Positions 3,938-50,128 of a stretch of 64,000 nucleotides of DNA are shown piece by piece. A model generated the notes under the pieces. That model did no database searches, was not told the DNA's origin, and saw only the letters and a program-made list of their open reading frames with translations. This DNA is from an uncultured beta proteobacterium. Its GTDB lineage: Bacteria; Pseudomonadota; Gammaproteobacteria; Burkholderiales; Rhodocyclaceae. The position numbers and the translations under genes are program-made. The stretch's first letter is position 1; every line of letters starts with the position of its first letter. Where the stretch lies: the NCBI GenBank assembly GCA_942493065.1, contig OW818671.1, positions 766,104 through 830,103 on the forward strand, given 5' to 3'.

Positions 3938-5202
3938 GGTAGGAATAACCTTGCGGTGGCGGCCGGGTTCGAGGGAAAGTAGAAGTGCATGTAGCTCGCG
4001 GTGAGGCGGCCGCTGCGATAAATCGCCTCGCCGCCCTTGCCCGCCGTCTTGACGGCCTGTGCAATGGGTGCAAGCGTCGTGTTGGCCGTCGAGTAGTGGA
4101 AGGTGTGGCCGGCGAGGCTGCCCTCGGGCAGGTCGACCGACAGGATGCCGAGGCCAGCGAGCTTCGTTTGCATGCGCACTTGACCGGGCAGGAGGCCGAA
4201 CATCGGGTGGGCATCTAGGCTGTCGAAGCAGGTCATCATGCCGCCGCATTCGGCGAGCAGCGGCTTGCCAGCGGCGACATGGGCGGCAAGGGCGACGCGC
4301 ATCGCGCTGTTGGCGGCGATGGCCGGGCCGTGCAGTTCGGGATAGCCGCCGGGCAGCCAGACGGCGTCGCACGCCGGCAGCACGGCGTCGGCCAGCGGCG
4401 AGAAGAAGGCGAGCCGCGCACCGAGTTGCGCCAGGCATTCGAGATTGGCGGGATACAAAAAGCAGAAGGCCGCATCGCGCGCGACGGCGATGGTCTTGCC
4501 GGCGAGCAGCGGCGCAAATGTCGGCGCTGGCAGGACGGCGAATTCCACGGGCGGGGGCAGTTCGGCGGCAGCCGTGGCGCTGAGCAGGTCGGCCATGCGC
4601 TCGATGCGCGCGTCGAGGTCGGCGATCTCGGCGGCAGGCAAGAGGCCCAGATGGCGCTCGGGCAACGCGGCGTCGACATCGCGCGGCAAGGCGCCGGCCC
4701 AGGCGATGTCCTCAGGCAGCGTTTCGCGGCACAGCTCGGCGTGGTAATCGCTGCCGACGCGGTTGGCGAGCGCATGCGTGATCGGCGCACCATCGCGGTA
4801 ATGCTTCAGTCCCCATGCCACGGCGCCGAAACTGCCGGCCATCGCACTGGCGTCGATGACCAGCAATACCGGCAAGCCCAACCGACGCGCGAGTTCGGCC
4901 GAGTCCGGTGCGCCGTCGTTCAGGCCCATCACGCCCTCGACGAGGAGCAGCTCGGCATCCTGCGCGGCGCGCGCGAGCCGCCAGCGCGCGTCTTCCTCGC
5001 CACCCATGCGGAAGTCGATGTTCTCGCAGGGCTGGCCACTGGCGAGTACGTGAATCTGCGGATCGAGAAAATCCGGCCCGCACTTGAAGACGCGCACCTT
5101 GCGGCCCAGCCGCGTGTGCAGGCGCGTCAGCGCAGCGACCACGGTGGTCTTGCCGTGGCCGGAGGCCGGGGCGGCGACGAGGAGTGCGGGGGTGGCTACC
5201 AT
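3934..5202 (-). CDS. cobB: Cobyrinate a,c-diamide synthase
   Basis: P-loop ASGHGKTT, FKCGPDFLDP, LVEGVMGL, glutaminase GGYPELH and AECGG. Confidence 0.93.
   Translation of the reverse strand: MVATPALLVAAPASGHGKTTVVAALTRLHTRLGRKVRVFKCGPDFLDPQIHVLASGQPCENIDFRMGGEEDARWRLARAAQDAELLLVEGVMGLNDGAPDSAELARRLGLPVLLVIDASAMAGSFGAVAWGLKHYRDGAPITHALANRVGSDYHAELCRETLPEDIAWAGALPRDVDAALPERHLGLLPAAEIADLDARIERMADLLSATAAAELPPPVEFAVLPAPTFAPLLAGKTIAVARDAAFCFLYPANLECLAQLGARLAFFSPLADAVLPACDAVWLPGGYPELHGPAIAANSAMRVALAAHVAAGKPLLAECGGMMTCFDSLDAHPMFGLLPGQVRMQTKLAGLGILSVDLPEGSLAGHTFHYSTANTTLAPIAQAVKTAGKGGEAIYRSGRLTASYMHFYFPSNPAATARLFLP
4516..4539 (+). repeat. Dispersed 24-bp motif copy 3 (in cobB)
   Basis: AAATGTCGGCGCTGGCAGGACGGC; coding strand encodes AVLPAPTF. 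Confidence 0.9.
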
Positions 5203-5795
5203 TCGATCCCCGGCATCGCCTGCACGCCAGCCTGGAAAGCGTGCTTGACCAGCGTCATGTCGGTTACGGTATCGGCGGCCTCAACCAGTTCGGCCGGCGC
5301 GGCGCGCCCGGTAACGATCAGGTGCTGCATCGGCGGGCGGGCTGCGAAGGCGGCGAGCACTTCGGCCGTGTCGAGCCAGCGGTATTTGAGCGCATAAGTG
5401 AATTCGTCGAGAATGACAAGGTCGACGGCGGGATCGGCAAAAGCCTGTTGTGCCACGGCCCATGCCGCCTGTGCAGCAGCAGCATCCTTGGTGGCGTCCT
5501 GCGTCTCCCAGGTAAAACCCTCGCCCATCACATGCCAGCGCAGGTTTGGCTGTGCGCGGAAAAAAGCCTCTTCCCCGGTATCCGAACGGCTTTTGACGAA
5601 CTGGATCACGACCGCATTCAGGCCATGGCCCAACGCGCGCGCCAACACGCCGAAAGCGGCGGATGATTTGCCCTTGCCATTGCCGGTGTGGATCAGGAAG
5701 AGGCCGCGTGCCGTCTGCGCAGCGCCGACTTTTGCGTCGACCACTTCCTTCTTGCGTTGCATGCGCGCGCGATGGCGCTCATCCTTGGGTGTCAT
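5196..5795 (-). CDS. cobO: Cob(I)alamin adenosyltransferase CobO/BtuR
   Basis: HTGNGKGKSSAAFG, VIQFVKS, GEGFTW, LVILDEF, TGR.AP, KHAFQAG...GIEW. Confidence 0.95.
   Translation of the reverse strand: MTPKDERHRARMQRKKEVVDAKVGAAQTARGLFLIHTGNGKGKSSAAFGVLARALGHGLNAVVIQFVKSRSDTGEEAFFRAQPNLRWHVMGEGFTWETQDATKDAAAAQAAWAVAQQAFADPAVDLVILDEFTYALKYRWLDTAEVLAAFAARPPMQHLIVTGRAAPAELVEAADTVTDMTLVKHAFQAGVQAMPGIEW
5710..5733 (-). repeat. Dispersed 24-bp motif copy 4 (in cobO)
   Basis: + strand GCCGTCTGCGCAGCGCCGACTTTT; encodes KVGAAQTA. Confidence 0.85.
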
Positions 5796-6592: not shown

Positions 6593-6594
6593 AT

Positions 6595-8324: not shown

Positions 8325-8327
8325 GCG

Positions 8328-10169: not shown

Positions 10170-10302
10170 GCGATTCTCCCTGAACGGCCAGCGTCCCCGC
10201 AGGCCGATTGACGGACACGAATGCACAGGGGGAGAAACGGCGGCGGCAGAGATGGAACCCACCGACGCACCGCACCCCGCAGCGCATTCAACTGGATCAT
10301 CC

Positions 10303-10470
10303 GTGGCCGGTCTCCGGGCTTGAAAGTTTTGAACCATCGCCTTCCCGGGAAGATTCCCAGTGGCATTTGGATGGTTCCGCACTTTCTTACCGTTGCGGGG
10401 GCAGCACAGGCATTGTTGTCGCCAACTCACCTGTTTCCCGTTTCACCCGATTTAACTCGGGCACCTCGAA
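10303..10470 (-). ncRNA. Cobalamin (AdoCbl) riboswitch
   Basis: Minus strand has AGGTGCCC..GGGTGAAACGGGAA.CAGGTG..TGCTGCCCCCGCAACGGTAA..GCCACTGGG..GGGAAGGC..AGCCCGGAGACCGGCC (B12 box and conserved core). Confidence 0.95.
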
Positions 10471-10483
10471 CGAAGCGGGGCGG

Positions 10484-10489
10484 ATTATA
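10484..10489 (-). promoter_or_regulatory. Putative sigma70 -10 box for the riboswitch/btuB transcript
   Basis: Perfect TATAAT on minus strand ~15 nt upstream of the riboswitch; -35 is weak. Confidence 0.5.
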
Positions 10490-10505
10490 GGGACGCCGCG
10501 CATGT

Positions 10506-10529
10506 GCTGTACGGCCAGCGCCGACTTTT
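10506..10529 (-). repeat. Dispersed 24-bp motif copy 5 (intergenic)
   Basis: + strand GCTGTACGGCCAGCGCCGACTTTT. Confidence 0.75.
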
Positions 10530-11159: not shown

Positions 11160-11207
11160 TTTCTCCAAACCCGCCGGGCTGGCCGCCTCCTGTCGCGCTG
11201 ACCCGAA

Positions 11208-11381
11208 TTCCCTGCGGTGTTCGCCTAGGCCATACATTCCTTGAACCAATGCTAATTGGCATCGGTCGCAGCCCATAGACGCCGCCGTTGTGATCGCTCC
11301 TTGCGAGCGAACCTGAAGCGGCAGGAAAGCGGCCACTCTGAACCCAGGTTCAGGATGCCGGCCAAACGACACAGCGGGGAA
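11208..11381 (+). ncRNA. ssrS: 6S RNA
   Basis: Terminal complementarity TTCCCTGCGGTGT/ACACAGCGGGGAA, CCTTGAACC and CTGAACCCAGGTTCAGG elements; conserved position after zapA. Confidence 0.85.
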
Positions 11382-11388
11382 CCTATCG

Positions 11389-11430: not shown

Positions 11431-11449
11431 CTGCGCTAACATTCCAACC

Positions 11450-12721
11450 ATGAGCGCAAGCCACTCCTCGACAACCATCTTGGATCAACTGTTTCTCGGG
11501 CGACAGCCCATTCTCGACCCATCCGGCGCCTTGATCGGCTATGAACTGCTATTTCGCGATTCGCAGGTCAATCGCGCCGGTACCATCACCCCCGGTGTCG
11601 CTACGGCCGATGTCGTCTGCAAGGCGTTTGCCGAGTTGGGCCTGGCCGATGCGCTTGGCGGTAACAAGGCTTTCCTGATTGCCGATACCGCATTTCTTCA
11701 GCACGAAGCCATCGAAGCCCTGCCACCCGAGCAGGTGGTCTTCGAGGTGATTGCCGAGCAACTGCACGATGCCGTGCTGATGGAGCGCTGCCTGATGCTC
11801 AATGAGCGTGGCTATGTTTTCTGCCTGCGCGACCCGCTCGAACTCGACGAATCCGTCCTGCTGTTTCTGCGTCAGTCCACGTTCATGAAGCTGAACATCA
11901 AGGGGATGCCGGATGAAACACTGGCCCAGCTCCTCAATCTGCCCGCCGATTTCCGCCCGCTGGCGATCGCCAGCCATGTCGAAACGGCCGCCGATCATGC
12001 CCACGCGAAAGCACTTGGCTTCCAGTTTTTTCAGGGCTACTACTTTGCCGAGCCGACACTGATTGAAGGCAAGAAGCTCGACCCGGCCACGCAGGGCCTG
12101 ATTCGCATCATCAACCTGATTCATGCCGATGCCGACAGCGGCAAGATTGAGCAGGCCTTCAAGAGTGAAACGGCGCTCACCGTCAAACTGCTGCACCTGA
12201 CCAATTCGGTCGGCGTCGGCCTGCGCGTCCGCATCGGCTCGATCAAGCAGGCCATCAACGTGATCGGCCGACGCCACATCCAGCGCTGGTTACAACTATT
12301 GCTCTACAGCAGTCATGGCGCCAGCGATACTTTCGAGCGCAATCCGCTGATGCAGTTGGCTGCGCTCAAGGGCCGCTTCATGGAATCGCTGACCGGCTAT
12401 GCGCAGCCCCGCAACAAAGATCTCGCCGAACAGGCCTTTCTGGTCGGCATGATGTCCTTGATGCCCGCCGCGCTGGGTATGCGGATCGAGGCGATTCTGG
12501 AACAAATCGACATCGCCACCCCCTTGCGCGAAGCCCTGCTGACGCACGAGGGTGATCTCGGCCAACTGCTTTCGCTGACCGAATACTTCGATAACGAGGA
12601 TGTGGCCAACACACAGGCCATGCTGGGGCAAATTGGGCCATCGGTCTCACTGGAACTGATCAACCGCTGCCTCGCTGATTCGATTGCCTGGGTTCAGGCG
12701 CTCGCCACACAGGCCGAGTAA
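11450..12721 (+). CDS. EAL-like + HDOD domain protein (CdgJ/YuxH type)
   Basis: LGRQPILD...GYELLFR, FQFFQGYYFA.P, HDOD helical region KLLHLTNS..G....I.SI.QAI.VIG. Confidence 0.85.
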   Translation: MSASHSSTTILDQLFLGRQPILDPSGALIGYELLFRDSQVNRAGTITPGVATADVVCKAFAELGLADALGGNKAFLIADTAFLQHEAIEALPPEQVVFEVIAEQLHDAVLMERCLMLNERGYVFCLRDPLELDESVLLFLRQSTFMKLNIKGMPDETLAQLLNLPADFRPLAIASHVETAADHAHAKALGFQFFQGYYFAEPTLIEGKKLDPATQGLIRIINLIHADADSGKIEQAFKSETALTVKLLHLTNSVGVGLRVRIGSIKQAINVIGRRHIQRWLQLLLYSSHGASDTFERNPLMQLAALKGRFMESLTGYAQPRNKDLAEQAFLVGMMSLMPAALGMRIEAILEQIDIATPLREALLTHEGDLGQLLSLTEYFDNEDVANTQAMLGQIGPSVSLELINRCLADSIAWVQALATQAE

Positions 12722-12725
12722 AGCG

Positions 12726-13187
12726 ATGCGCTGCTGGTTGATGAAAAGCGAACCTGCCGTGGTCGGTATCGACCACGTGCTGGCGATGCCGAACCAGAGC
12801 GTCGACTGGTGGGGCGTGCGCAACTATCAGGCGCGCAACTTCATGCGCGACCAGATGAAGCTTGGCGATAGGGTGTTCTTCTACCACTCCAACTGCCCGG
12901 TGCCGGGCATCGCCGGACTGGCCGAGGTATGCAAGCTGGCCTATCCCGACCGCACCCAGTTCGACCCGAGCAGTCATTACTTCGACCCGAAGTCGACACC
13001 GGAGAATCCGCGCTGGGTCAATGTGGATGTGCGTATCGTCAGGAAGACCCGGCTGGTGAGTCTCGACGAGCTGCGCAGCCATGCGGAACTGGCCCAGATG
13101 CGCGTGCTGCAGCGTGGCAACCGCCTGTCGATCACCCCGGTTGATCCGGCCGAGTGGGATTTCATCGTCTGTGAATTGATGAAATGA
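12726..13187 (+). CDS. EVE domain-containing protein
   Basis: WLMKSEP, W.GVRNYQARNFMRD.MK.GD.VFFYHSNC, RGNRLSI.PV. Confidence 0.92.
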   Translation: MRCWLMKSEPAVVGIDHVLAMPNQSVDWWGVRNYQARNFMRDQMKLGDRVFFYHSNCPVPGIAGLAEVCKLAYPDRTQFDPSSHYFDPKSTPENPRWVNVDVRIVRKTRLVSLDELRSHAELAQMRVLQRGNRLSITPVDPAEWDFIVCELMK

Positions 13188-13984
13188 CGGTCTGGCTATT
13201 AGGTTATCTGGCCCTCGGTGCGGTCGCCGGCTTCTTCGCCGGCTTGCTCGGCGTGGGCGGTGGCGCCATCATGGTGCCGGTACTGGCGTTGATGTTCGCC
13301 GCCCAAGGGTTTCCCGACGCACATCTGATGCACTTGGCCCTCGGGACATCAATGGCAGCCATCGTGTTCACCTCGATTTCCTCCCTGCGCGCACACCATA
13401 GCCACGGCGCCGTGCTGTGGCCGATTGTCTGGGCCATCGCACCAGGCATCCTGATCGGCACTTTCGTCGGGGCGCAATTCGCCAGCCAGATCCCGACCCG
13501 TCCGCTGGCGATGTTTTTCACGCTGTTCATGAGTTACGTCGCGTTTCAGATGCTGGCGAACATCAAACCCAAGCCTTCGCGCCAACTCCCCGGATCATTG
13601 GGCATGTTCCTCGTCGGCAGCGGTATCGGCGCCCTCTCCGCGCTGGTCGCCATCGGCGGCGGCTCGCTTTCCGTGCCTTTCATGACCTGGTGCAACGTCA
13701 AGATGCACCATGCCATCGGCACCTCGGCCGCCATCGGCCTACCCATCGCCGCAGCCGGTACGCTGGGTTATTGGGTGGGCGGACAAGGCACTACCGATCT
13801 GCCCGCAGGCGGCTTTGGCTACATTTACCTGCCCGCCTTGGCGGCCTGCGTGGCAATGAGCATGCTCACGGCGCCGCTGGGCGCAAAAGCGGCGCACAAA
13901 CTCCCCGTCCCAACCCTGAAGAAAATATTTGCCGGCGTCATCCTGCTGCTGTTGGTCAAGATGGTGCATGGCCTGTTTCTGTAA
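13184..13984 (+). CDS. Sulfite exporter TauE/SafE family membrane protein
   Basis: AGFFAGLLGVGGGAIMVP, A.GTS.A, IGGG...VP multi-TM pattern. Confidence 0.9.
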   Translation: MTVWLLGYLALGAVAGFFAGLLGVGGGAIMVPVLALMFAAQGFPDAHLMHLALGTSMAAIVFTSISSLRAHHSHGAVLWPIVWAIAPGILIGTFVGAQFASQIPTRPLAMFFTLFMSYVAFQMLANIKPKPSRQLPGSLGMFLVGSGIGALSALVAIGGGSLSVPFMTWCNVKMHHAIGTSAAIGLPIAAAGTLGYWVGGQGTTDLPAGGFGYIYLPALAACVAMSMLTAPLGAKAAHKLPVPTLKKIFAGVILLLLVKMVHGLFL

Positions 13985-14007
13985 AAAGTCGGCGTTGGCG
14001 GGACGGC
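13984..14007 (+). repeat. Dispersed 24-bp motif copy 6 (abuts tauE TAA stop)
   Basis: AAAAGTCGGCGTTGGCGGGACGGC. Confidence 0.9.
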
Positions 14008-14023
14008 GCTATACTCTAAAAGC

Positions 14024-24531: not shown

Positions 24532-25026
24532 TTATGGCATGTTTCTTGCGCGATCTAGCAGACCGGAAAGCGCATGAAGTACCGATTGACGCCGGATACT
24601 CTCCCGATCACCGCTGAAAAGTCGGCGCTCGCAGGACGGCGTGCTATTTTTCCCTGACCACGCAAAGCAGACGGTGCCCACCGGCTTGTCCGGCGAGCCG
24701 CCGGCGGGGCCGGCGACTCCCGTAATTGACAATGAAATCAGCGCATTGGAGTGTTGCAATGCCCCTGCTGCCATGGCCATTGCAGTTTCCAGACTGACCG
24801 CACCGAAGGTTTCTATAGTGTTCATAGGAACACCGAGCATATCTGCTTTCGCGGCATTTGTATAGGTGACAAAGCCACGGTCGAACCAGGCCGAGCTGCC
24901 GGGCGTGTGCGTAATGACCTGCGCCGCCCAGCCGCCGGTGCAGGATTCGGCCGTGGCGATCATGAGGTTTCGGGCCAGACAGACTGCACCGATGGCCGCA
25001 GAGAGTTCGACCAGATCGCTATCCAT
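24532..25026 (-). CDS. cinA: CinA/PncC nicotinamide mononucleotide deamidase-like protein
   Basis: ATAESCTGG, GSSAWFDRGFVTYTN.AK, SITGVAGP.GGS..KPVGTV. Confidence 0.9.
   Translation of the reverse strand: MDSDLVELSAAIGAVCLARNLMIATAESCTGGWAAQVITHTPGSSAWFDRGFVTYTNAAKADMLGVPMNTIETFGAVSLETAMAMAAGALQHSNALISLSITGVAGPAGGSPDKPVGTVCFAWSGKNSTPSCERRLFSGDRESIRRQSVLHALSGLLDRARNMP
24617..24640 (+). repeat. Dispersed 24-bp motif copy 7 (in cinA)
   Basis: AAAAGTCGGCGCTCGCAGGACGGC; coding strand encodes PSCERRLF. Confidence 0.88.
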
Positions 25027-30404: not shown

Positions 30405-30408
30405 TATT

Positions 30409-30432
30409 GCCGTCTTATCAGCGCCGACATTT
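30409..30432 (-). repeat. Dispersed 24-bp motif copy 9 (abuts FAH TAA stop)
   Basis: + strand GCCGTCTTATCAGCGCCGACATTT. Confidence 0.88.
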
Positions 30433-31198
30433 ACTCGTAACGATTGACGAGCCGCCCAATCCCGTCAATCACCACTTCGACCGTATCGCCTGCCGCGAGC
30501 GGCCCGGCGCCGACCGAGGTGCCGCAGGCAATCACGTCGCCTGCTTCCAGTGTCATGTCCTGGGAAATGCGGCTGACGATTTCGGCCGGCGAAAAGAACA
30601 TGTCGCTGACCGGATAGTCTTGGCGCACCTCGCCCGAGATGACTGCACCGACCCGCAGGCTGGCGGGATCAAGACCGGTGGCAATCACCGGGCCGAACAC
30701 GCCGAAGGTGTCAAAGCTCTTGGCGCGCGTCCAATGCACGAAGGCCGGATCGAGGCGCATCACATCGCGGGCCGTCACGTCATTCACGCAGGTATAGCCG
30801 AAGATGGCTGCCGGTGCCTCGGCGACTGACACCGCCTTGGAGCGCCGGCCGATCACAATACCCAGCTCCGCCTCGAACACCACCGCGCCGTGATAACCGG
30901 CCGGGCGGCGAATCGTGTCGCCATGCGCCGCAAAACAGTTGCTGCTCTTGAGAAAGTAGAGCGGATGCTCGGGGCGATGCAGCCCCTCCTTCGTTGCTCG
31001 CTCATGGAAGTTGTTCCACAGACCGATCATCTTGCCCGGCCGGCAGGGCATCAGCACGCGCACGTCCGCCAGCGCAAACTGCTGTGACGTGGGCTGCGGG
31101 TCGGCAAACAGGTCGCCAGTCCAGACGGTGACGATTTCGTTGTCGAGGGTGCCGAAATGTTCAGCCCCTGCCGCTTCAAAGCGCAGCCAGTGGGTCAT
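30431..31198 (-). CDS. Fumarylacetoacetate hydrolase family protein
   Basis: P.YFLKSSN, FEAELGIVIG, GYTCVNDVTARD, RAKSFDTFG..GP, GDVIACGT. Confidence 0.92.
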   Translation of the reverse strand: MTHWLRFEAAGAEHFGTLDNEIVTVWTGDLFADPQPTSQQFALADVRVLMPCRPGKMIGLWNNFHERATKEGLHRPEHPLYFLKSSNCFAAHGDTIRRPAGYHGAVVFEAELGIVIGRRSKAVSVAEAPAAIFGYTCVNDVTARDVMRLDPAFVHWTRAKSFDTFGVFGPVIATGLDPASLRVGAVISGEVRQDYPVSDMFFSPAEIVSRISQDMTLEAGDVIACGTSVGAGPLAAGDTVEVVIDGIGRLVNRYE

Positions 31199-34635: not shown

Positions 34636-34659
34636 AAAAGTCGGTGCTGGCCGGACGGC
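34636..34659 (+). repeat. Dispersed 24-bp motif copy 12 (intergenic)
   Basis: AAAAGTCGGTGCTGGCCGGACGGC. Confidence 0.85.
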
Positions 34660-34767
34660 ATAAACGCGCCCCATCCCGGGGCAAATATCGCCGTTCTGCG
34701 CGGATTTTGCCGACCTGATTTTCTTGCCATTATCGCCAATGGCCTGTTTTGCGGTAGAAACCACGAA

Positions 34768-38996: not shown

Positions 38997-39020
38997 AAAT
39001 GTCGGCGCTGGCAGGACGGC
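38997..39020 (+). repeat. Dispersed 24-bp motif copy 13 (intergenic, after methyltransferase stop)
   Basis: AAATGTCGGCGCTGGCAGGACGGC, identical to copy 3. Confidence 0.9.
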
Positions 39021-39068
39021 ATGGCACGGGTATCATTTCGTTTCAATCCCGTCCGTTTAGGAGGTCGT

Positions 39069-41005: not shown

Positions 41006-41007
41006 GG

Positions 41008-41031
41008 AAATGTCGGCGCTGGTGAGACGGC
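41008..41031 (+). repeat. Dispersed 24-bp motif copy 14 (fills 27-bp gap between convergent genes)
   Basis: AAATGTCGGCGCTGGTGAGACGGC. Confidence 0.9.
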
Positions 41032-41032
41032 A

Positions 41033-44000
41033 CTACCGCCTGCGCAAATCCAGCGTACTCGGATACTCGGGGTTGATTTCCTCTTCCACCGGCGCCATCG
41101 GCCCGATGGTCGTGCCTTCGGGCAGGAAGGTGTCCAGCGCGCCGACCCACGGCGGTGGCGTGTAGCTGCCAATGGTGTGGCCCTCGCCCTGAAAACGGAT
41201 GTGGCGACGCGCCTCGGCTTCGTAGGCGTTGACCGGGAAGCTGTCGTAGTTGCGGCCACCCGGGTGCATGACCTGGTAGGTGCAGCCGCCGATGGCCTTG
41301 TTGTTCCACAGGTCGACGATGTCGAAGACCAGTGGCGACTGCACACCGATGGTCGGGTGCATCGCCGAAGGCGGTTGCCAGGCGCGGTAGCGCACGCTGG
41401 CGATGTATTCGCCGTGCGTGCCGGTATTGGCGAGCGGCACGCGGCGGCCGTTGCAGGTCAGCGCATGGCGGCCATCGGTCAGGCCGTTGACCTTGACCTG
41501 CACGCGCTCGATGGATGAATCGACATAGCGCGCCGTGCCGAGGCCGGTCGCTTCCTCGCCGAGCACATGCCAGGGCTCGATGGCGGCACGTACTTCGAGG
41601 GCGATGTCGCCGAGCTGGATGCCGCCGTAGCGCGGAAAACGGAATTCGAGGAAGGGGGCGAACCAGTCGAGCTGGAAGGGATAGCCGGCCTCGTTAAGCT
41701 CGGTCACCACTTGCTTGAGATCAGCCCACAGGTGATGCGGCATCATCCAGCGGTCATGCAGCGCTGTGCCCCAATGCACCAGCGGCTTGGCATAGGGCTT
41801 GGCCCAGAAGCGTGCGACGAGCGCGCGCACCAAGAGCATCTGGGCAAGGCTCATGTGCGCATGCGGCGGCATTTCGAAGCCACGAAACTCGACCAGCCCC
41901 TGCCGACCGGCGGCGGAATCCGGCGAATAGAGCTTGTCGATGCAGAACTCGGTGCGATGCGTATTGCCGGTCAGGTCGGTGAGCATGTGGCGGAACAGGC
42001 GGTCGACCAGCCAGGGCTGCGGCGTTTCCTCGCCCGCCTTGGGTAACTGCTGGAAGGCGATTTCCAGCTCGTAGAGAATTTCCGGGCGACCTTCATCGAC
42101 GCGCGGCGCCTGACTGGTTGGGCCGATGAACAGGCCGCTAAACAGATAGGACAGGCTCGGGTGGTGCTGCCAGTAGGTCAGCAGGCTGCGCAGCAGATCG
42201 GGGCGACGCAGGAATGGGCTGTCGGCCGGTGTGGCACCGCCGAGGGTGACATGGTTGCCGCCGCCCGTGCCGCTGTGGCGGCCGTCGAGCATGAACTTCT
42301 CGGTGCCGAGGCGCGACTGGCGCGCTTCTTCGTAGAGCGTCAGCGTGGTGGCTTCGAGTTCTTCCCAGTTCTTTGCCGGATGGATGTTGACCTCGATGAC
42401 GCCGGGGTCGGGCGTGACCAGCAGTTTTTCGAGGCGGCCATCGGAAGGCGGCGCATAGCCTTCGATCACCACCGGTAACCTGAGGGCCGCACAGGTGCAT
42501 TCGATGGCGGCGATCAGGTCGAGCGCCTGATCGAGGCGCGGCGTGGGCGGCAGGAAGACGTAGAGACAGCCGTCGCGCGGTTCGATACACAGGGCGGTGC
42601 GTGGCACCTCGGCCGCCTTGGCGCTGCTGATGGCCTTGGCACGTGCAGCGGCTTCTTCATGAAAATCGGCCAGTGGCTCGGTGGGGGCAAAAGGATCAAC
42701 TTCCGTGGCGATCTCCAGCTTGTCCTCATCGACCGCCGCGACTGAATTGAGCGGCAGGCGTAGGCCGAGCGGCGAATCACCCTGAATGAGATAGAGACGT
42801 TCGCGACGGAATTTCCACGGCGCGCTATGCCAGCCTTCCTTCCATGCCAGCGGGAGGACGAAACCGGTGGGCGTATCAAGTCCGCGCGAGAGGATCTCGG
42901 CGAGGTTGCGTCGTCCGAGCAGGTCGAGCGGATCGGCCCGCAGCGCCGCTTCGGCAAGATCGAGATTCTCCGGCACCGTGGCTTCACGCAGCAAGGCGGC
43001 GAGGGCATCCTCGTAGGCAGGCTGCACGCATTGCGCGGCCAGACCGAGATGGCGCGCCAGGGTTTCGGCAAAACGCTGCGCCTCGGCCACGCCATGGCCG
43101 TAGTCCTGGCCCGGATCGGCGAGCCACTGCTCGTCTTTCCACACCGGCACGCCGTCCTTGCGCCAGAAGATGCCGAGTGCCCAGCGCGGCAGCGGCTCGC
43201 CCGGATACCATTTGCCCTGCGCATTGTGCAGCAGCGCGCCGGTGGCAAAGCGGTCTTTCAGGCGGCGCGCCAGCACTTCGGCGCGTTCGCGCTTGTGCTT
43301 GCCGAGCGCAGCGATGGTCCATTCCGGCGCCTCCATGTCGTCAATCGAGACGAAGGTCGGCTCGCCGCCCTGCGTCAGGCGCACGTCCATTGCTTGCAGC
43401 CTGGTGTCGACCATGCGGCCGAGCGCACGGATGTGTGCCCACTGTTCGTCGGTGTAGGGCTTGGTGACGCGCGGGTCTTCCTTGAAGCGCGTGACGGTGT
43501 TGCTGAAGGCAAAGTCGACCTCGCATGGATCAGTGAGGCCGGCAATCGGCGCGGCCGAGGACGGATGCGGCGTGCAGGCGAGCGGAATATGACCTTCGCC
43601 GGCGAAGAGACCCGAGGTCGGGTCGAGGCCGACCCAGCCGGCGCCGGGTATGAAAACTTCGGTCCACGCATGCAGGTCAGTGAAGTCGGCTTCCGGGCCG
43701 GAGGGGCCGTCGAGCGATTTTTCGTCGGCGGTGAGCTGGACGAGGTAGCCGGAGACGAAGCGCGCGGCCAAGCCCAGATGCCGCAGGATCTGCACCAGCA
43801 GCCAAGCCGAATCGCGACAGGAACCGAGCTTGCGTTGCAGCGTTTCCTCGCAGCTTTGCACGCCGGGTTCGAGGCGAATGGTGTAGCCGATGTGCTGTTG
43901 CAGATTGCGGTTGATGTCGACAAGGAAATCGACGATCTGTTGCGGCTTGCGTTCAATGCTGGCCAGATAGGCACCCAGCAACGGCTCAGGCGTTTCCTTT

Positions 44001-44356
44001 TCGAGGTAGGGCGTGAGTTCCTTGGCGAGCGCTTCGGGATAGGCGAAAGGCCACTGGTCGGCATATTCCTCGACGAAGAAGTCGAAGGGGTTGATGACGG
44101 TGAGATCGGCGATCACCTCGACATCGATCAACAGCTCGGTCGCGCGTTCGGGGAAGACCAGCCGCGCCAGATAGTTGCCGAACGGATCCTGCTGCCAGTT
44201 GATGAAATGCTTTTCCGGCCGGATCTTCAGGCTGTAGGACAGGATCGGCGTGCGGCTGTGGGCGGCGGGCTTCAACCGCACCACATGCGGACTCAGGCTG
44301 ACCGGGCGATCAAACTTGTAATGCGTGGTGTGGCGAATGGCAACGTGGATGGACAT
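41033..44356 (-). CDS. Transglutaminase-like + DUF2126 (amidoligase-like) fusion protein
   Basis: Triad GSCRDSAWLLV / DLHAWTEV / WVGLDPT; DUF2126 motifs LTQGGEPTF, VTPDPGVIEVN, GTGGGNH, GPTSQAPRVDE. Confidence 0.88.
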   Translation of the reverse strand: MSIHVAIRHTTHYKFDRPVSLSPHVVRLKPAAHSRTPILSYSLKIRPEKHFINWQQDPFGNYLARLVFPERATELLIDVEVIADLTVINPFDFFVEEYADQWPFAYPEALAKELTPYLEKETPEPLLGAYLASIERKPQQIVDFLVDINRNLQQHIGYTIRLEPGVQSCEETLQRKLGSCRDSAWLLVQILRHLGLAARFVSGYLVQLTADEKSLDGPSGPEADFTDLHAWTEVFIPGAGWVGLDPTSGLFAGEGHIPLACTPHPSSAAPIAGLTDPCEVDFAFSNTVTRFKEDPRVTKPYTDEQWAHIRALGRMVDTRLQAMDVRLTQGGEPTFVSIDDMEAPEWTIAALGKHKRERAEVLARRLKDRFATGALLHNAQGKWYPGEPLPRWALGIFWRKDGVPVWKDEQWLADPGQDYGHGVAEAQRFAETLARHLGLAAQCVQPAYEDALAALLREATVPENLDLAEAALRADPLDLLGRRNLAEILSRGLDTPTGFVLPLAWKEGWHSAPWKFRRERLYLIQGDSPLGLRLPLNSVAAVDEDKLEIATEVDPFAPTEPLADFHEEAAARAKAISSAKAAEVPRTALCIEPRDGCLYVFLPPTPRLDQALDLIAAIECTCAALRLPVVIEGYAPPSDGRLEKLLVTPDPGVIEVNIHPAKNWEELEATTLTLYEEARQSRLGTEKFMLDGRHSGTGGGNHVTLGGATPADSPFLRRPDLLRSLLTYWQHHPSLSYLFSGLFIGPTSQAPRVDEGRPEILYELEIAFQQLPKAGEETPQPWLVDRLFRHMLTDLTGNTHRTEFCIDKLYSPDSAAGRQGLVEFRGFEMPPHAHMSLAQMLLVRALVARFWAKPYAKPLVHWGTALHDRWMMPHHLWADLKQVVTELNEAGYPFQLDWFAPFLEFRFPRYGGIQLGDIALEVRAAIEPWHVLGEEATGLGTARYVDSSIERVQVKVNGLTDGRHALTCNGRRVPLANTGTHGEYIASVRYRAWQPPSAMHPTIGVQSPLVFDIVDLWNNKAIGGCTYQVMHPGGRNYDSFPVNAYEAEARRHIRFQGEGHTIGSYTPPPWVGALDTFLPEGTTIGPMAPVEEEINPEYPSTLDLRRR

Positions 44357-44390
44357 GCAGTTCTCGCAGCGGTGTGGACGCTACGAGCAC

Positions 44391-44404
44391 GCAAGCATCG
44401 TGCC
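44391..44404 (-). promoter_or_regulatory. Putative sigma54 promoter for the transglutaminase-DUF2126 gene
   Basis: Minus strand GGCACG-ATGC-TTGC, GG-N10-GC, 34 nt upstream of ATG. Confidence 0.6.
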
Positions 44405-44416
44405 TTGCCAGCGTGC

Positions 44417-45148
44417 TTACTGGTATTCCCAGTCGAAATGGGGCAATTGCTCCAGCGCCTGAAACAGGCCTTGGCTCCATTTCTCGGATAGTTCACGTGC
44501 AAACGGGTCGTCTTCGCGGAAATACAGGTGCTTGCCTTCCTCGAAGCTATCGCGGCGATAGATCAGGAGTTCCACCGGCGGGCCGACGGTGAGGTTGGAG
44601 CGAATCGTCGAGTTCATCGATACCAGCGCGCAGCGCGCAGCCGGCTCTAGCGTCACATCGCGCTTGATCACGCGATCAAGGATCGGCTTGCCATACTTGA
44701 TCTCGCCGATCTGCAGGAAGGGGTGCTCGGACGATTCATGGATGTAATTGCCCTGCGGATAGATCATGAAGATCTCGGGCGCCTGGCCAATAATCTGGCC
44801 GGCGAGGATGAAAGTGGCTTCGAAGTTGGTGGTGGCCGTATCGCGGCTGGCATGCAGCTTCTGCACCTGCGTGCTGACGATGCCCAGATAGTCGGCAGCC
44901 TCCTGCATGGTCGCCACCGTGGTCAGATTAGGCACCATGCCGGCGACGATATCGCTATTGATTTTTTTGACCACCGCCTGTGTCGTGGCCAGGTTGCCCG
45001 CTGACAGCAGCGTAAAAAAGCGCACGCCCGGCCAGACAAAGGGGAACATCTTCGAATAGATGCTGACGTTGTCCGTGCCCGCATTCGTGCGCGAATCGGA
45101 ACACAGGACGAGGCCGTCATTGACGTGGATAGCGAGGCAATAAGTCAT
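44417..45148 (-). CDS. Anbu proteasome-beta-like (Ntn hydrolase) protein
   Basis: MTYC with N-terminal Thr, SDSRTNAG.DN.S.YSKM, AGNLATTQ, QIGE.KYGKPILDR, NLTVGPP. Confidence 0.88.
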   Translation of the reverse strand: MTYCLAIHVNDGLVLCSDSRTNAGTDNVSIYSKMFPFVWPGVRFFTLLSAGNLATTQAVVKKINSDIVAGMVPNLTTVATMQEAADYLGIVSTQVQKLHASRDTATTNFEATFILAGQIIGQAPEIFMIYPQGNYIHESSEHPFLQIGEIKYGKPILDRVIKRDVTLEPAARCALVSMNSTIRSNLTVGPPVELLIYRRDSFEEGKHLYFREDDPFARELSEKWSQGLFQALEQLPHFDWEYQ

Positions 45149-45257
45149 GGAGGCGTGGCGCAGGACAATTTGGATCGAGGGCGAATTGTATGCGCTAGGA
45201 ACGGCAGCGCGGCTACCGGAGGCGATCGAACAATGAGCGAATACACCGATTTGATGG

Positions 45258-45274
45258 CTGGCGCGTTTGTTGCA
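45258..45274 (+). promoter_or_regulatory. Putative sigma54 promoter for ATP-grasp/alpha-E genes
   Basis: CTGGCGCG-TTTG-TTGCA, GG-N10-GC. Confidence 0.6.
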
Positions 45275-45285
45275 GAGCAACAGGT

Positions 45286-46746
45286 ATGACCCTCGAACTG
45301 CACAACTATCCCCAGCCCAACACCTATGATGAGCTGCTCGATGAGTGTCAGCAGCCGCGGCCTGCCGCGCGCGTCCTCTTCGATTACGTCAATCGCCTCG
45401 GCGCCAAGGAACTCGCCGCCCGCCGCGAGAGCGTCGACGCCGCCATCATGGCCATGGGCATTACCTTTACCGTTTATAGCGACGCCGGAAACATCGACCG
45501 CGCATGGCCTTTCGACATCATCCCGCGCACCTTGTCGAGCAAGGAATGGGCACGTATCGATGCCGGCCTCAAGCAGCGCCTGACCGCCCTCAACCTGTTC
45601 ATCAACGATCTTTACAACGAGCAGAAAATCGTCAGGGACGGCATTTTCCCGATCGAGGTACTGGAAGGTTCGAAGAACTTTCGTGCTCAATGCAAGGGCA
45701 TGACGCCCCGTTTTGGGGTGTGGGCGCATGTGTGCGGCACCGATCTGGTGCGCGACAAGGATGGCACTGTCTATGTGCTTGAGGACAATCTGCGCGTGCC
45801 TTCCGGCGTTTCCTACATGCTGGAAAACCGCCAGCTGATGAAGCGGCTGTTCCCCGAACTGTTCAAGTCGAGTGACATCCTGCCGGTCGACGATTACCCG
45901 ACGCAGTTGTACGACACCCTCGCCGCCCTGTCACCGCGCGACAGTGAGCGCCCGGTGATTGCGGTGCTCACGCCCGGCATCTACAACTCGGCCTATTTCG
46001 AGCACAGCTATCTGGCGCAGAAGATGGGTGCCATCCTCGTCGAAGGTTCCGATCTGGTCGTCAAGGATGACGACTGTGTCTACATGAAGACGATTTCCGG
46101 CCTGAGTCGTGTTGATGTCATCTACCGCCGCATCGACGACGACTTTCTCGACCCCGAGGCCTTCCGGCCCGATTCCGCGCTCGGCGTACCCGGCCTGATG
46201 CGCGCCTGGCGTGCCGGCAATGTCGGTATCGCCAATGCGCCCGGCGCCGGTGTGGCGGACGACAAGGTGGTGTATACCTTCGTGCCGCAGATCATCAAGT
46301 ACTACCTCGACGAAGAGCCGATCCTGCCCAACGTACCGAGCTGGATGTGTATGTACGAGGACCAGCGCGAGCACGTCCTCGCCAACCTCGACAAGCTGGT
46401 GGTCAAGCCGGCCAACGAGTCGGGCGGCTACGGCATGCTGATCGGCCCGCGCGCCAGTCCCGAGGAGCGCGCGCAGTTCGCCGACCTGATTCGCGAAAAT
46501 CCACGCAACTACATGGCCCAGCCGACGCTGTCGATTTCCACCGCGCCGACGCTGATCGGCGACAAGCTGGCGCCGCGCCATCTCGACCTGCGCCCCTTCG
46601 TGCTGCAGTCGGACAGGCTCTACGCCACCACTGGCGGCCTGACGCGCGTCGCCCTGCGCGAAGGCTCGCTGATCGTCAATTCCTCGCAGGGAGGCGGCAG
46701 CAAGGACACCTGGATCATCAACACCGATGACGGGGAGGCCACCTGA
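45286..46746 (+). CDS. Circularly permuted type 2 ATP-grasp protein (DUF404)
   Basis: [63 protein letters not shown]. Confidence 0.92.
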
Positions 46747-47720
46747 TGCTCTCGCGTGTCGCCGAAAATCTCTACTGGCTGGGCCGCTATCTCGAACGTG
46801 CCGAGAACACCGCCCGCTTCATCAACTCCACCACGCAGGTGTTGCTCGACCTGCCGAAGGATTCCGCCTTCGGCTGGGACGTGCTGCTCAAGGTCGCCGG
46901 TCTCGACGAGATTTTCAGCGAACACCATCCACATTTGGCGCAAGCCGATGAAGACAGCATCGTGCGCTTCCTCGTCGAGGACGAAAAGAACCCGAGTTCG
47001 ATCCTCTCCGGCATCCACAACGCCCGCGAAAATGCGCGCACGGTGCGTGAAGTGCTGCCGATGGAGCTATGGGAGCGCATCAACAGCCTCTACCTGTATG
47101 CGCGCGACAATGCGGCGCGTGCCAGCGAAGGACGTGGCCCGCGTATCGAGGTGCTACAGGGCGTAATCGGCCGGCGTGAATCGATCATCGGCCTGCTCAC
47201 CGGCTCGATGAGTCAGGATGTTGCCTACCAGTTCATCAAGCTCGGCCGCAACATCGAGCGTGCCGACATGACGACGCGCATTATCGACGTCAATTCCGCC
47301 GTGCGCCTGCCGCGCGATCCAGCGCTAGCAGCGGTCGCCACCGAACGCATGTGGATGAGCACGCTCAACGGCCTCTCCGCCTACCAGATGTATCGCCGCC
47401 ATGTCAGCGTGCATGTACGCGCCAACGAGGTGGTTAACTACCTGCTGAAGAATTCGCACTTCCCGCGCACGGTGCTGCATTGCCTCGCCGAGGTCGAAGG
47501 CTGCCTATCCGTGCTGCCCGAGCACAAGGACGCCATGAAGAAAGTGCGCCAGGCCTGGCGGCGTGTCGAGAGCATGCAGTTGAACGATCTCAAGCCGACG
47601 GTATTGCACGAGTATCTCGATCAGGTGCAAAGCGACCTCGGCGAAGTCCATACCGCCGTGGCCCGGCAGTATTTCCACTTGCACCACGAAAATGTCGGCG
47701 CTGGCGGGATGGCACAGTAA
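46746..47720 (+). CDS. Alpha-E domain protein (DUF403)
   Basis: [23 protein letters not shown]; LGR.IERADMT.R; overlaps ATP-grasp stop. Confidence 0.92.
   Translation: MLSRVAENLYWLGRYLERAENTARFINSTTQVLLDLPKDSAFGWDVLLKVAGLDEIFSEHHPHLAQADEDSIVRFLVEDEKNPSSILSGIHNARENARTVREVLPMELWERINSLYLYARDNAARASEGRGPRIEVLQGVIGRRESIIGLLTGSMSQDVAYQFIKLGRNIERADMTTRIIDVNSAVRLPRDPALAAVATERMWMSTLNGLSAYQMYRRHVSVHVRANEVVNYLLKNSHFPRTVLHCLAEVEGCLSVLPEHKDAMKKVRQAWRRVESMQLNDLKPTVLHEYLDQVQSDLGEVHTAVARQYFHLHHENVGAGGMAQ
47690..47713 (+). repeat. Dispersed 24-bp motif copy 15 (alpha-E 3' end)
   Basis: AAATGTCGGCGCTGGCGGGATGGC; encodes NVGAGGMA. Confidence 0.88.
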
Positions 47721-48308
47721 TCAGGCGTTCAGCATGCGCTCCACGTAGCGCGCGATCAGGTCGACTTCAAGATTCACCAACGCGCCGGGCTTCAGGCGCT
47801 TGAGCGTCGTCACCTGCACGGTGTGCGGGATCAGGTTGATCGCGAACTCGCGGCCTTTCACTTTATTCGTCGTCAGCGAGACGCCATCAATGGTGATCGA
47901 TCCCTTGCGGGCGATGTATTTCGCCAGCTTCTTCGGCGCCCGGATAATCAGCAAATGCGATTCGCCGATCGGTTCGAAAGTAATCACCTCGCCGACGCCA
48001 TCGACATGCCCGGAGACCAGATGGCCGCCGATGAAATCAGACAGGCGCATCGCCTTTTCCAGATTCACTTCGCCGCCCGGCACATCCAGGCCGACGGTGC
48101 AGTCGAGCGTCTCCTTCGAGACATCGATCTGGTAGCTGGTTCTTTTCTTGGCGATGACCGTCAGGCAGACGCCATTGTGGGCGATCGAATCGCCGAGCGC
48201 GACATCCTTGAGATTCAGGCCGGGTGCCTCGACGGTCAGGCGCACGCCTTGTTCGAGGGGCTGCAACTGGGTGATCTTGCCGGTGGTGGCGACGATGCCG
48301 GTAAACAT
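47721..48308 (-). CDS. ribC: Riboflavin synthase (alpha chain)
   Basis: MFTGIV, GDSIAHNGVCLTV, GGHLVSGHVDG, KGSITIDGVSLT, VNLEVD.IARYVER. Confidence 0.95.
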   Translation of the reverse strand: MFTGIVATTGKITQLQPLEQGVRLTVEAPGLNLKDVALGDSIAHNGVCLTVIAKKRTSYQIDVSKETLDCTVGLDVPGGEVNLEKAMRLSDFIGGHLVSGHVDGVGEVITFEPIGESHLLIIRAPKKLAKYIARKGSITIDGVSLTTNKVKGREFAINLIPHTVQVTTLKRLKPGALVNLEVDLIARYVERMLNA

Positions 48309-48328
48309 GGTGGGGACTCCGATCGGGG

Positions 48329-50128
48329 TTAATTGGGTTTCTGCGCTTTTTCGAGGACGCCGAGAAACTGTGAAGCCGGCTGATAACCGACCACGCGCAG
48401 ATCGGTATTTTCCTTGCCATCCTTGAAGAAGATGATACCTGGCGGGCCGAACAGGCCGAAGCGCTTGAGCAGCGCCTTGTCGTCGTCGTTATTGGCCGTG
48501 ACATCCGCCTTGAGCAGGGTGAATTCCTTCATCTTCGCAGCCACCTGCGGATCGGCGAAGGTGAATTTCTCCATCTCCTTGCAGCTCACGCACCAGTCGG
48601 CATAGAAATCGAGCATCACGGGTTTGGTCGCACCGGCAATACGTGCATCGAGTTCGGCAACCGTCTTCACTTTTTCAAAAGTCGGCGCTGGCGAGACGGC
48701 ATTGCCTGCCGTTCTCAGAAATGCGAGGGGCTGCAATGGATCGCGGCTGCCGCCCATCAGTCCGAGCAGCATGGCTGCACCAGCCAGCAGCAAGGTAATG
48801 CCAATGCCTTTCCAGAACCGCGCCCAGCCGCCCGAATGGGCCGGCAGCGGTTCAAGCGCGCGCAGGTAGATGGCCGGCACAATCAGCAACATGGCCCAGC
48901 CGGCCATCACCAGCCAACTCGGCAACACCGGTGAGACCAGCCACAAGGCCGTGGCGAGCAGCACAACGCCGAAGAATTTCTTGACGGCTTCCATCCACGG
49001 GCCGGTCTTGGGCAGGAAGGAACGCGAGAACACGCCGACGGCCAAGAGCGGCGCGCCCATGCCGAGGCCCATGGAGAACAGCGCCGCGCCACCGAGCACG
49101 GCATCCTTCGTCTGTGCGATGTAGAGCAGCGCGCCGGCCAGTGGCGCGGCAACGCAGGGGCCGACGATCAGGGCCGAGAGGGCGCCCATGAGGGCAATTG
49201 CCGGCAGCGAGCCGCCCTGGTGATTGGCGGTGTCCGACAGTTTCGACTGCAAGGCGGCCGGCAGTTGCAATTCATAGAAACCGAACATCGAGAAGGACAG
49301 CACGACGAAAACCAGCGCGAAACTGCCGAGCACCCAGGCGTTTTGCAGGGCGGCCGACAGCAGCGTGCCGCTGAAGCCGGCCGCGACGCCGATTAGCGCA
49401 TAGGTCACGGCCATGCCGAGCACATAGGCCAGCGAGAGCGTGAATGCGCGCAGATGGGTCACCGCGTGCCCATGATTGACGATGATGCCGGAGAGGATCG
49501 GGATCATCGGGAAGACGCAGGGCGTCAGCGATAACAACAGGCCGAAGCCAAAGAAGGTGATGACGGCCATCCAGAAGCCGCTGCCCTTGAGCAATTTGGC
49601 GATCTGGCCGCTCTCGTCGCCTGCGTCGCCACTGGCGGGTGCGGCCGATGCCGTCTCGCCAGCGCCGACATTTGCAGGCAGCGGCACACTGGCCGTTGCG
49701 GGCGCACCGCTCATCGCAGCCAGCGTGATTCTGGCGTCCTGCGTCATTGGCGGATAGCACACGCCGCCATCCCAGCAGCCCTGCGATGTGGCTTTGAGGA
49801 TGACTTGCCCGCTGCCGCTGGCGACGGGAATGCGCGCAACCGCTTCGTTGTCGCGGAAGATATGCACCTTGCCGAAGAACTCGTCGTCCTTTTCCTTGCC
49901 CTTGGGCATCTCGGGTGTGCCGAGCTTGACGCTGGCCGGTTCGACGGCGAATTCGATTTTTTCCTTGTAAAGGTAGTACTCGGGGGTGATGGTCCAGCGT
50001 GCTTCGATGGTCTTGTCGTCCAGCGCACGGGCAGAAAATCGGAAAGCCTGCTCCGGGTCGAGCGGCTCGGCAGCCATAGTAAGGAAGCTGGCAAGCAGCA
50101 GGCTGAACAGGGCAAGAAATCGTGTCAT
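48329..50128 (-). CDS. dsbD: Thiol:disulfide interchange protein DsbD
   Basis: N-domain SQGCWDGGVCYPP, TM SLTPCVFPMIPIL and GPCVAAPL, thioredoxin DFYADWCVSCK. Confidence 0.95.
   Translation of the reverse strand: MTRFLALFSLLLASFLTMAAEPLDPEQAFRFSARALDDKTIEARWTITPEYYLYKEKIEFAVEPASVKLGTPEMPKGKEKDDEFFGKVHIFRDNEAVARIPVASGSGQVILKATSQGCWDGGVCYPPMTQDARITLAAMSGAPATASVPLPANVGAGETASAAPASGDAGDESGQIAKLLKGSGFWMAVITFFGFGLLLSLTPCVFPMIPILSGIIVNHGHAVTHLRAFTLSLAYVLGMAVTYALIGVAAGFSGTLLSAALQNAWVLGSFALVFVVLSFSMFGFYELQLPAALQSKLSDTANHQGGSLPAIALMGALSALIVGPCVAAPLAGALLYIAQTKDAVLGGAALFSMGLGMGAPLLAVGVFSRSFLPKTGPWMEAVKKFFGVVLLATALWLVSPVLPSWLVMAGWAMLLIVPAIYLRALEPLPAHSGGWARFWKGIGITLLLAGAAMLLGLMGGSRDPLQPLAFLRTAGNAVSPAPTFEKVKTVAELDARIAGATKPVMLDFYADWCVSCKEMEKFTFADPQVAAKMKEFTLLKADVTANNDDDKALLKRFGLFGPPGIIFFKDGKENTDLRVVGYQPASQFLGVLEKAQKPN
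48677..48700 (+). repeat. Dispersed 24-bp motif copy 16 (in dsbD linker)
   Basis: AAAAGTCGGCGCTGGCGAGACGGC, identical to copy 8; encodes AVSPAPTF. Confidence 0.92.
49650..49673 (-). repeat. Dispersed 24-bp motif copy 17 (in dsbD linker)
   Basis: + strand GCCGTCTCGCCAGCGCCGACATTT; encodes NVGAGETA. Confidence 0.92.

Follow-up and report, generated by a model that had tools for sequence, protein, structure and literature searches.

A dispersed 25-bp DNA word of Rhodocyclaceae with the genomic signature of an uptake signal

Introduction

Why should two genes for unrelated proteins share an identical stretch of 28 nucleotides? This question is raised by a 64,000-nucleotide (nt) stretch of DNA, referred to here as the window, from an uncultured beta proteobacterium of the Rhodocyclaceae (assembly GCA_942493065.1, contig OW818671.1, positions 766,104 to 830,103, forward strand). 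In this window, the 28-mer TTCAAAAGTCGGCGCTGGCGAGACGGCA occurs in thiL and again in dsbD. An initial annotation, based on the nucleotide sequence and its translations, had proposed that the repeat belongs to a motif that has overwritten protein sequence in several frames. Here we report that the underlying word is almost certainly a DNA-level, genome-wide, and lineage-specific signal under sequence-specific drive, and we weigh the explanations for its maintenance.

Results

A sharply bounded 25-bp motif underlies the shared 28-mer

The 28-mer is exact at 25761-25788 (thiL) and at 48674-48701 (dsbD), both on the + strand, as the initial annotation had reported, and a further copy with two mismatches is present at 49649-49676 (- strand). 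No match was found in 100 dinucleotide shuffles. The members of this family in the window were collected by k-mer counts and mismatch scans and were then scored with a weight matrix. Alignment of the window copies showed that the conserved unit is a sharply bounded 25-mer, AAAWGTCGGCGCTGGCRGGACGGCR, of approximately 34 bits, and that the information content falls to about 0 just outside positions 1 to 25. The motif is formed by two blocks, namely, positions 1 to 16 and 20 to 25, and positions 17 to 19 are variable. The 28-mer has three further bases, TTC, which read as a Glu codon on the gene strand; they belong to the unconserved flank, and their match between the two genes is due to chance.

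The window contains 21 copies, each of at least 32 bits, corresponding to a density of about 1 per 3 kb, whereas shuffles contained none. The score distribution is bimodal, as the best remaining site reached only 12.6 bits. In other genomes, the flanks of 94 intergenic and 140 coding copies carried no information out to 30 nt on each side. We saw no terminal inverted repeats, target duplications, hairpin, or conserved flanks for the motif, which alone folds no better than shuffles (z = 0.1 and 1.2). An Rfam search of the window matched no family to it and retrieved only a cobalamin riboswitch and a 6S RNA.

Copies are present in both orientations, in all reading frames and between genes

Gene identities in the window were established by Pfam, and the coding fraction was determined with a gene caller that uses codon log-odds and had the Pfam-supported genes as its training set. 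According to this caller, 93.6% of the window is coding and 6.4% is intergenic. Of the 21 copies, 12 are in coding sequence and 9 in intergenic DNA, so that 43% of the copies fall into 6.4% of the sequence (~10-fold enrichment, P = 3e-6). A larger sample, consisting of the window and loci from other genomes (942 kb, 235 copies; genes outside the window called with the same in-house caller), contained 140 coding copies and 95 copies in the 10% that is noncoding. The 140 coding copies of this sample use all six frames, with a bias toward two of them:

Sense frame 2, KVGAGxTA: 53 copies
Antisense frame 2, AVxPAPTF: 44 copies
Antisense frame 0, RRxASADF: 19 copies
Sense frame 1, KSALAGR: 16 copies
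Antisense frame 1, PSxERRLF: 7 copies
Sense frame 0, KSRRWRDG-like: 1 copy

The overwriting of protein sequence in several frames, as proposed initially, is thus borne out, and all peptides listed at that time are present in the window translations. The coding copies listed were likewise all found, but that list lacked a twelfth one (61140-61164, antisense) and the nine intergenic copies. The statement that most copies are in linkers or C-terminal tails holds for about 7 of the 12 coding copies, whereas the copies in CinA, ThiL, and CbiB and both copies in a P-type ATPase are within Pfam domains.

There is no preferred orientation. In the window, 11 copies are on the + strand and 10 on the - strand. 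Of 114 pairs of neighboring copies, 57 agree in orientation, and between tandem genes the larger sample has 29 sense and 26 antisense copies. These counts give no strand skew of the type seen for Chi or the FtsK orienting polar sequences (KOPS). All copies at gene 3' ends in the window are sense, but a sense-only rule was rejected as a sampling effect, since it was gone in 84 intergenic copies from other genomes. The motif is thus read as double-stranded DNA, in either orientation, in any frame, and also between genes. A separate observation concerns a Sulfuritalea assembly, in which a single intergenic region (L097:6058-6314) harbors three copies (-, +, +) within about 260 nt, with an independent hairpin separating the last two.

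The motif is conserved as DNA and dictates amino acids

Nearly all of the best 120 ThiL homologues with at least 71% identity bear the peptide AV(S/P/L)PxPTF at the motif site. The PAPTF peptide was found in none of about 130 more distant ThiL representatives (42-62% identity), in which the site is a hypervariable loop. Similarly, solved CinA structures match PSCERRLF in the final Phe only. In the P-type ATPase, KSALAERH overlies a semiconserved LAxRxN stretch that it fits, and RRLPSADF is in a variable loop. The CinA and ATPase alignments revealed no length change with respect to homologues at the coding copies.

The ribBA-ribH-nusB-thiL-pgpA-cinA-recA loci of three relatives retain the thiL and cinA copies as DNA. 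In orthologues from relatives with 72-81% ThiL identity, 13 of the 16 third codon positions within the thiL and cinA motif sites are invariant, compared to 27-28% gene-wide (P = 1e-5). Moreover, the codons that the motif imposes are rare in this genome (CCA, 10%; ACT, 8%; CGA, 4%; CTT, 8%; GCT, 6%). The motif is therefore maintained as DNA, strongly enough to dictate amino acids. The initial claim that it is driven at the DNA level rather than by protein function or codon bias is supported by the distant orthologues, the third positions, the rare codons, the six frames, and the dialects described below; the ortholog alignment that had been proposed as a check found the peptides to be lineage specific, as distant ThiL and CinA proteins do not have them.

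Some thiL orthologues carry insertions exactly at the motif (L122:10693-10813, protein P0053; ThiL proteins P0072, P0077, P0097, P0104, and P0105). The insert in L122 comprises 32 codons and is flanked by two motif copies, and the others consist of 11-30 residues that partly repeat the AV..PAPTF peptide. Duplication or ectopic recombination may occur preferentially at the motif.

Lineages use different dialects of the word

Four further thiL loci (L244 to L247) were picked for their deviating peptide. The locus L245 contains 7 copies of the form GAAACTCGGCGCCGGCGGGGCGGCG in 21 kb (dialect C), and L246 contains AAAAGTCAGTCCCGGCGGGACGGCG (dialect B), which was also present in at least 120 stretches of metagenome contigs. 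Single-position shifts of the motif were observed in L244 and L247. Counts in two sets of loci show that the canonical and B forms are mutually exclusive (Fisher P = 4e-85):

Canonical genome loci (815 kb): canonical 185, dialect B 0, dialect C 0
Dialect B loci (798 kb): canonical 9, dialect B 143, dialect C 0

At the thiL site, the three forms and their translations are as follows:

Canonical: GCC GTC YCG CCA GCG CCG ACT TTT, AV(S/P)PAPTF
Dialect B (L246): GCC GTC TCG CCG GGA CTG ACT TTT, AVSPGLTF
Dialect C (L245): GCC GCC CTG CCA GCG CCG GGT TTC, AALPAPGF

The amino acids follow the word of the respective genome at the same thiL nucleotides, indicating conversion in place and not reinsertion. 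Orthologous sites in thiL, in cinA, and 3' of the FAA-hydrolase gene were all converted in this way, and the amino acids changed accordingly. The motif is thus kept where protein-level selection would permit change, and dispersed copies switch together with the dialect. Selection acting site by site does not readily account for a coordinated conversion of this type.

In L244, a segment between pgpA and cinA (11480-13765) encodes a SLFN/AlbA_2-HATPase_c_4 protein and has a perfect canonical copy at 13519, whereas the genome's own copies are of the AAAACTCGG type. This segment looks like an acquisition from a canonical-dialect donor.

The motif is common among Rhodocyclaceae assemblies

In our analysis, the window corresponded to contig JAVBYI010000009.1 of the metagenome-assembled genome GCA_030824115.1. 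When one genome per species was scanned for the exact pattern, at least 117 stretches with the motif were retrieved. Among the matches listed, nearly all are from Rhodocyclaceae, according to the depositors' own taxon labels (Sulfuritalea, "Methyloversatilis," Azonexus, Propionivibrio, Rugosibacter, Sulfurisoma, and Sterolibacteriaceae), and the motif is common to many assemblies of this family (Sulfuritalea group). Loci chosen by thiL, and not by the motif, contained 4-7 copies per 21 kb. Densities outside the window are rough: genome loci have a residual density of about 1 per 10 kb, and the thiL-selected loci have 1 per 4-5 kb.

The sole cultured isolate among the genome matches listed is Tepidicella xavieri DSM 19605, whose genus is outside those named above. 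One copy, canonical and near perfect, is situated in a long intergenic region of this isolate (L028:4590-4614) and may be transferred DNA.

Dialects B and C had no matches in viral contigs, and only partial motif matches at chance level were obtained in sequenced plasmids and isolated phages. One contig called viral (IMGVR_UViG_3300009945_000063; L141:629-2300) contains a noncoding 316-bp tandem repeat of about 5 units (91% identity, stops in all frames) with one canonical copy per unit, at 883, 1199, 1515, 1831, and 2216, all on the + strand.

Individual copies in the window and their surroundings

The 21 copies, assigned on the basis of Pfam and weight matrix matches, are the following:

58-82 (+): cbiB, C-terminal part, sense, LKVGVGGTA; 36 bits; Pfam CobD_Cbib matches the partial open reading frame (ORF) 2-241
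3278-3302 (-): bluB, C-terminal tail, sense, WKVGAGGTA; the nitroreductase domain ends 30 residues earlier
4516-4540 (+): cobB, antisense, linker between the CbiA and GATase_3 domains, FAVLPAPTF (Pfam, weight matrix)
5709-5733 (-): cobO, sense, between the Co_AT_N and CobA domains, AKVGAAQTA (Pfam, weight matrix)
10505-10529 (-): intergenic, 22 nt upstream of the cobalamin riboswitch of a TonB-dependent receptor gene (weight matrix, Rfam)
13984-14008 (+): intergenic, between tauE and a GGDEF gene; begins with the final A of the tauE TAA stop
24617-24641 (+): cinA, antisense, inside the CinA domain (Pfam), TPSCERRLF; DNA conserved in orthologues
25764-25788 (+): thiL, antisense, variable loop of AIRS_C, LAVSPAPTF; DNA conserved in orthologues, peptide tracks the dialect
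30408-30432 (-): intergenic between convergent genes, 2-nt overlap with the TAA stop of an FAA-hydrolase gene
32355-32379 (+): P-type ATPase, antisense, loop of the nucleotide-binding (N) domain, RRLPSADFY
33236-33260 (-): P-type ATPase, sense, actuator (A) domain, EKSALAERH, on the semiconserved LAxRxN stretch
34636-34660 (+): intergenic, upstream of a Bax1-I family gene
38997-39021 (+): intergenic, between a methyltransferase gene and lemA
41008-41032 (+): intergenic, occupies 25 of the 27 nt that separate the stops of convergent TPM and DUF2126 genes
47690-47714 (+): alpha-E, C-terminal tail, sense, ENVGAGGMA, 7 nt from the ribE stop codon
48677-48701 (+): dsbD, antisense, linker between transmembrane and thioredoxin domains, NAVSPAPTF; same sequence as in thiL
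49649-49673 (-): dsbD, sense, linker between DsbD_N and the transmembrane domain, ANVGAGETA
58706-58730 (-): intergenic, 2-nt overlap with the TAA stop of a phosphoglucomutase gene
61140-61164 (-): weakest copy (32 bits), antisense in an unannotated 291-amino-acid ORF, PAAPSSPTF
62272-62296 (-): intergenic, upstream of a Crp/Fnr-family regulator gene
62897-62921 (-): intergenic, 2-nt overlap with the TAA stop of a rubrerythrin-like gene

The TAA stops of four genes (13982-13984, 30431-30433, 58729-58731, and 62920-62922) supply the first A bases of the motif, and at these sites the word either abuts the gene end or defines it. The site at 30408-30432 is also occupied in the relative L121 and, by the dialect of that genome, in L245. 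After the phosphoglucomutase stop (58693-58743, - strand), an inverted partial copy, CAGCGCTGAC, lies directly upstream of the motif and pairs with its 5' half. The resulting hairpin has a 10-bp stem (-13.6 kcal/mol, z = -4.4), and this is the sole window copy with such a partner.

As to other features, the cobalamin riboswitch (10288-10483, - strand, 120 bits) precedes the TonB-dependent receptor gene beside the cob/btu cluster, and the 6S RNA gene (57 bits) is at 11206-11384 (+). A cluster at 41033-47720 encodes a transglutaminase-DUF2126 protein, a proteasome-type subunit, a circularly permuted ATP-grasp protein, and alpha-E, and has the motif at both ends.

Discussion

An uptake-signal-like word as the probable explanation

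We consider it probable that the word is uptake-signal-like and is kept by biased uptake and recombination; uptake, a receptor, and competence are what we infer. In such a mechanism, the machinery for DNA uptake would carry a sequence-specific receptor, probably one linked to type IV pili, that favors fragments bearing the word, and the alleles taken up would replace resident ones by RecA-dependent recombination. Receptor preference and recombination together would have the consequence that mutations bettering the match of a site are overtransmitted (molecular drive). Copies would pile up where they are tolerated, such as after stop codons and in interdomain linkers, C-terminal tails, and variable loops, and would also settle on protein stretches that already fit one of the six translations. 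As the receptor preference drifts, existing sites would be converted in place, giving rise to dialects and taking the amino acids along. In our analysis, uptake and recombination would fit everything that was seen.

The genomic signature, as we read it, is that of the DNA uptake sequences (DUS) of Neisseriaceae and the uptake signal sequences (USS) of Pasteurellaceae, except for a longer word and the missing inverted-repeat terminator pairs. Both exceptions weigh against an uptake signal, as do several further points. DUS measure 10-12 bp, whereas the motif has 25 bp in two blocks and is thus twice as long. About half of the copies are in terminators in Neisseriaceae and Pasteurellaceae (bioRxiv 10.1101/2025.10.24.684340), but the inverted-repeat terminator pairs of DUS and USS were not seen for the motif. 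Close inverted motif pairs were not found, the nearest pairs on opposite strands being at least 104 nt apart, and inverted partial copies are present at 5-9% of the sites, at intergenic ones no more than at coding ones. A terminator-type arrangement was accordingly rejected, and the lone good hairpin at 58693-58743 is an isolated case. The canonical form is present in many contigs called viral, where its residual density is about 1 per 15 kb versus 1 per 10 kb in genomic loci, a weak depletion. The data consist of the window and of pieces of 8-21 kb that were mostly selected by the motif, and the logos are inflated at the searched positions. Finally, our literature search retrieved no report of natural competence or transformation in this clade.

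Nor did that search, which left most subscription journals outside its reach, retrieve a report of this word or of an uptake specificity in Rhodocyclaceae; the motif string and its complement matched unrelated primers only. DUS and USS with exactly such properties are described for Neisseriaceae and Pasteurellaceae only (PMC3630211, PMC2817400), and a comparison of 177 genomes (late 2025) treats uptake sequences as a property of these two families only (bioRxiv 10.1101/2025.10.24.684340).

Alternative explanations

The word may be no uptake signal at all but the footprint of an undescribed sequence-specific intracellular drive, such as motif-directed gene conversion or a chromosomal "self" mark recognized by a repair or defense system, in which a change in specificity could rewrite about a thousand dispersed sites, including coding ones. 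We hold this to be doubtful. The strongest competing explanation is a DNA-binding or self-marking system in the cytoplasm, in which the motif would be the binding site of an abundant chromosomal protein, for example, that of a nucleoid organizer or a "self" mark for a repair or defense nuclease. Each copy would then be kept by selection on its function, and the dialects would reflect coevolution with the protein. A 25-bp word in two blocks (1-16 and 20-25, with 17-19 variable) does resemble a protein footprint, orthologous positions retain copies across genera, and the motif is found on viral or prophage contigs. However, selection per site, with about a thousand sites, appears too weak to impose nonsynonymous changes and rare codons on housekeeping enzymes, and it should not convert dispersed sites jointly to a new consensus. 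Furthermore, the known polar words Chi and KOPS are strongly strand-skewed 8-mers, whereas the skew of the motif is nil. To our knowledge, there is no chromosomal-protein system with a 25-bp site at this density, and we regard a binding site of this kind as unlikely. We find it distinctly unlikely that the word is selfish DNA spread without transformation, either as a miniature mobile element or through nuclease- or recombinase-directed conversion at the motif. The high copy number, the sharp boundaries, the insertions and the second copy at the thiL site of some relatives, and the 316-bp tandem array with one copy per unit on a viral contig would agree with selfish spread. But the motif is without terminal inverted repeats, target duplications, hairpin, and conserved flanks; its coding copies keep the reading frame, CinA and the ATPase being neither longer nor shorter there than their homologues; and the dialects change by substitution at the same nucleotides and not by reinsertion. 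Since 25 bp is not a multiple of 3, insertion would break reading frames. A larger mobile element was rejected on the basis of the uninformative flanks.

The remaining alternatives are contradicted more directly. A motif acting as RNA, be it a 3'-untranslated-region or terminator element or the site of an RNA-binding protein, would account for the sense orientation of all gene-3'-end copies in the window and for the good hairpin that one copy forms with its upstream flank (58693-58743, z = -4.4). Nevertheless, we judge it highly improbable and rejected it on the basis of orientation counts, folding, and Rfam: the tandem-gene copies of the larger sample are balanced (29 sense, 26 antisense), half of the coding copies are antisense, the z scores of the motif alone are 0.1 and 1.2, there is no Rfam match, and inverted partners are not in excess at intergenic sites. 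We give practically no credence to the idea that the peptides reflect protein function or a codon or amino acid bias, with the DNA identity being secondary. It is true that strings such as KVGAG and PAPTF consist of common small residues that suit linkers, yet 9 of the 21 copies are noncoding, one DNA word has six different translations, synonymous positions are frozen on rare codons, the peptides are missing from distant orthologues, and the peptide shifts with the DNA dialect. Taken together, these data refute a protein-level explanation.

Implications

Sequence-specific DNA uptake is textbook biology that rests on two host-associated families. If the word described here is an uptake signal, it would add a third and independent case, one from free-living environmental Betaproteobacteria that abound in groundwater, lakes, and wastewater; self-preferring transformation would then be more widespread, having originated or persisted also in bacteria that are not associated with animals. 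From the dialect pairs, one can predict the DNA that each lineage should accept, and the receptor should covary with the dialect. The thiL site offers a base-by-base view of a DNA-level drive overriding protein-level selection. Furthermore, the word and its dialects form a taxonomic watermark that could serve in metagenomic binning, in spotting acquired segments (such as the L244 insert), and in linking prophages to their hosts.

Comparison with known systems

Among dispersed repeats, repetitive extragenic palindromic (REP) elements, bacterial interspersed mosaic elements (BIME), and Correia-type miniature elements are similarly short, present in hundreds of copies, and often located right after genes. 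They are, however, palindromic or have terminal inverted repeats, are intergenic only, and are born by insertion, whereas the motif has no fold, has 60% of its copies in frame in genes, and changes by substitution. Chi (recognized by RecBCD/AddAB) and KOPS (FtsK) are also overrepresented, lineage-specific words that coevolve with a protein, but they have 5-8 nt and a strong replication-strand skew, in contrast to the 25 nt and absent skew of the motif. The highly iterated palindrome HIP1 of cyanobacteria (GCGATCGC) resembles the motif in being highly iterated, within coding sequence, and conserved as DNA; it differs in being an 8-bp palindrome linked to methylation, whereas the motif is long and asymmetric.

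The USS of Pasteurellaceae consists of a 9-bp core in a segment of about 30 bp, occurs as Hin and Apl types, and is accepted to be maintained by molecular drive through uptake and recombination, with ComN/PpdA as the predicted receptor. The length of the recognized segment and the existence of lineage subtypes are similar to what we observed. USS copies are mostly coding, at permissive positions, and in preferred frames (PMC2817400), as is the case for the motif. In contrast, the motif sequence is unrelated to USS, G+C rich, and without AT-rich, helically phased flanks, and its hosts belong to another bacterial class and are free-living and environmental.

The DUS of Neisseriaceae, the 12-mer ATGCCGTCTGAA and its dialects, is bound by the minor pilin ComP (sequence in PDB entry 2M3K). 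Like the motif, DUS form dispersed copies in both orientations, genic as well as intergenic with an intergenic enrichment, are common to a family of Betaproteobacteria, exist as mutually exclusive lineage dialects, have a frame bias, and leave an imprint on peptides. Unlike in DUS, the CTG core common to all DUS dialects is not conserved in the motif, and DUS reach about 1 copy per kb, compared to about 1 per 3 kb for the motif in the window and 1 per 4-10 kb elsewhere. When read as its reverse complement, the motif starts with TGCCGTC, the same 7 bases as in DUS, an overlap reached by 0.4-2% of shuffles that we take not as evidence but as a possible lead toward a ComP-like receptor.

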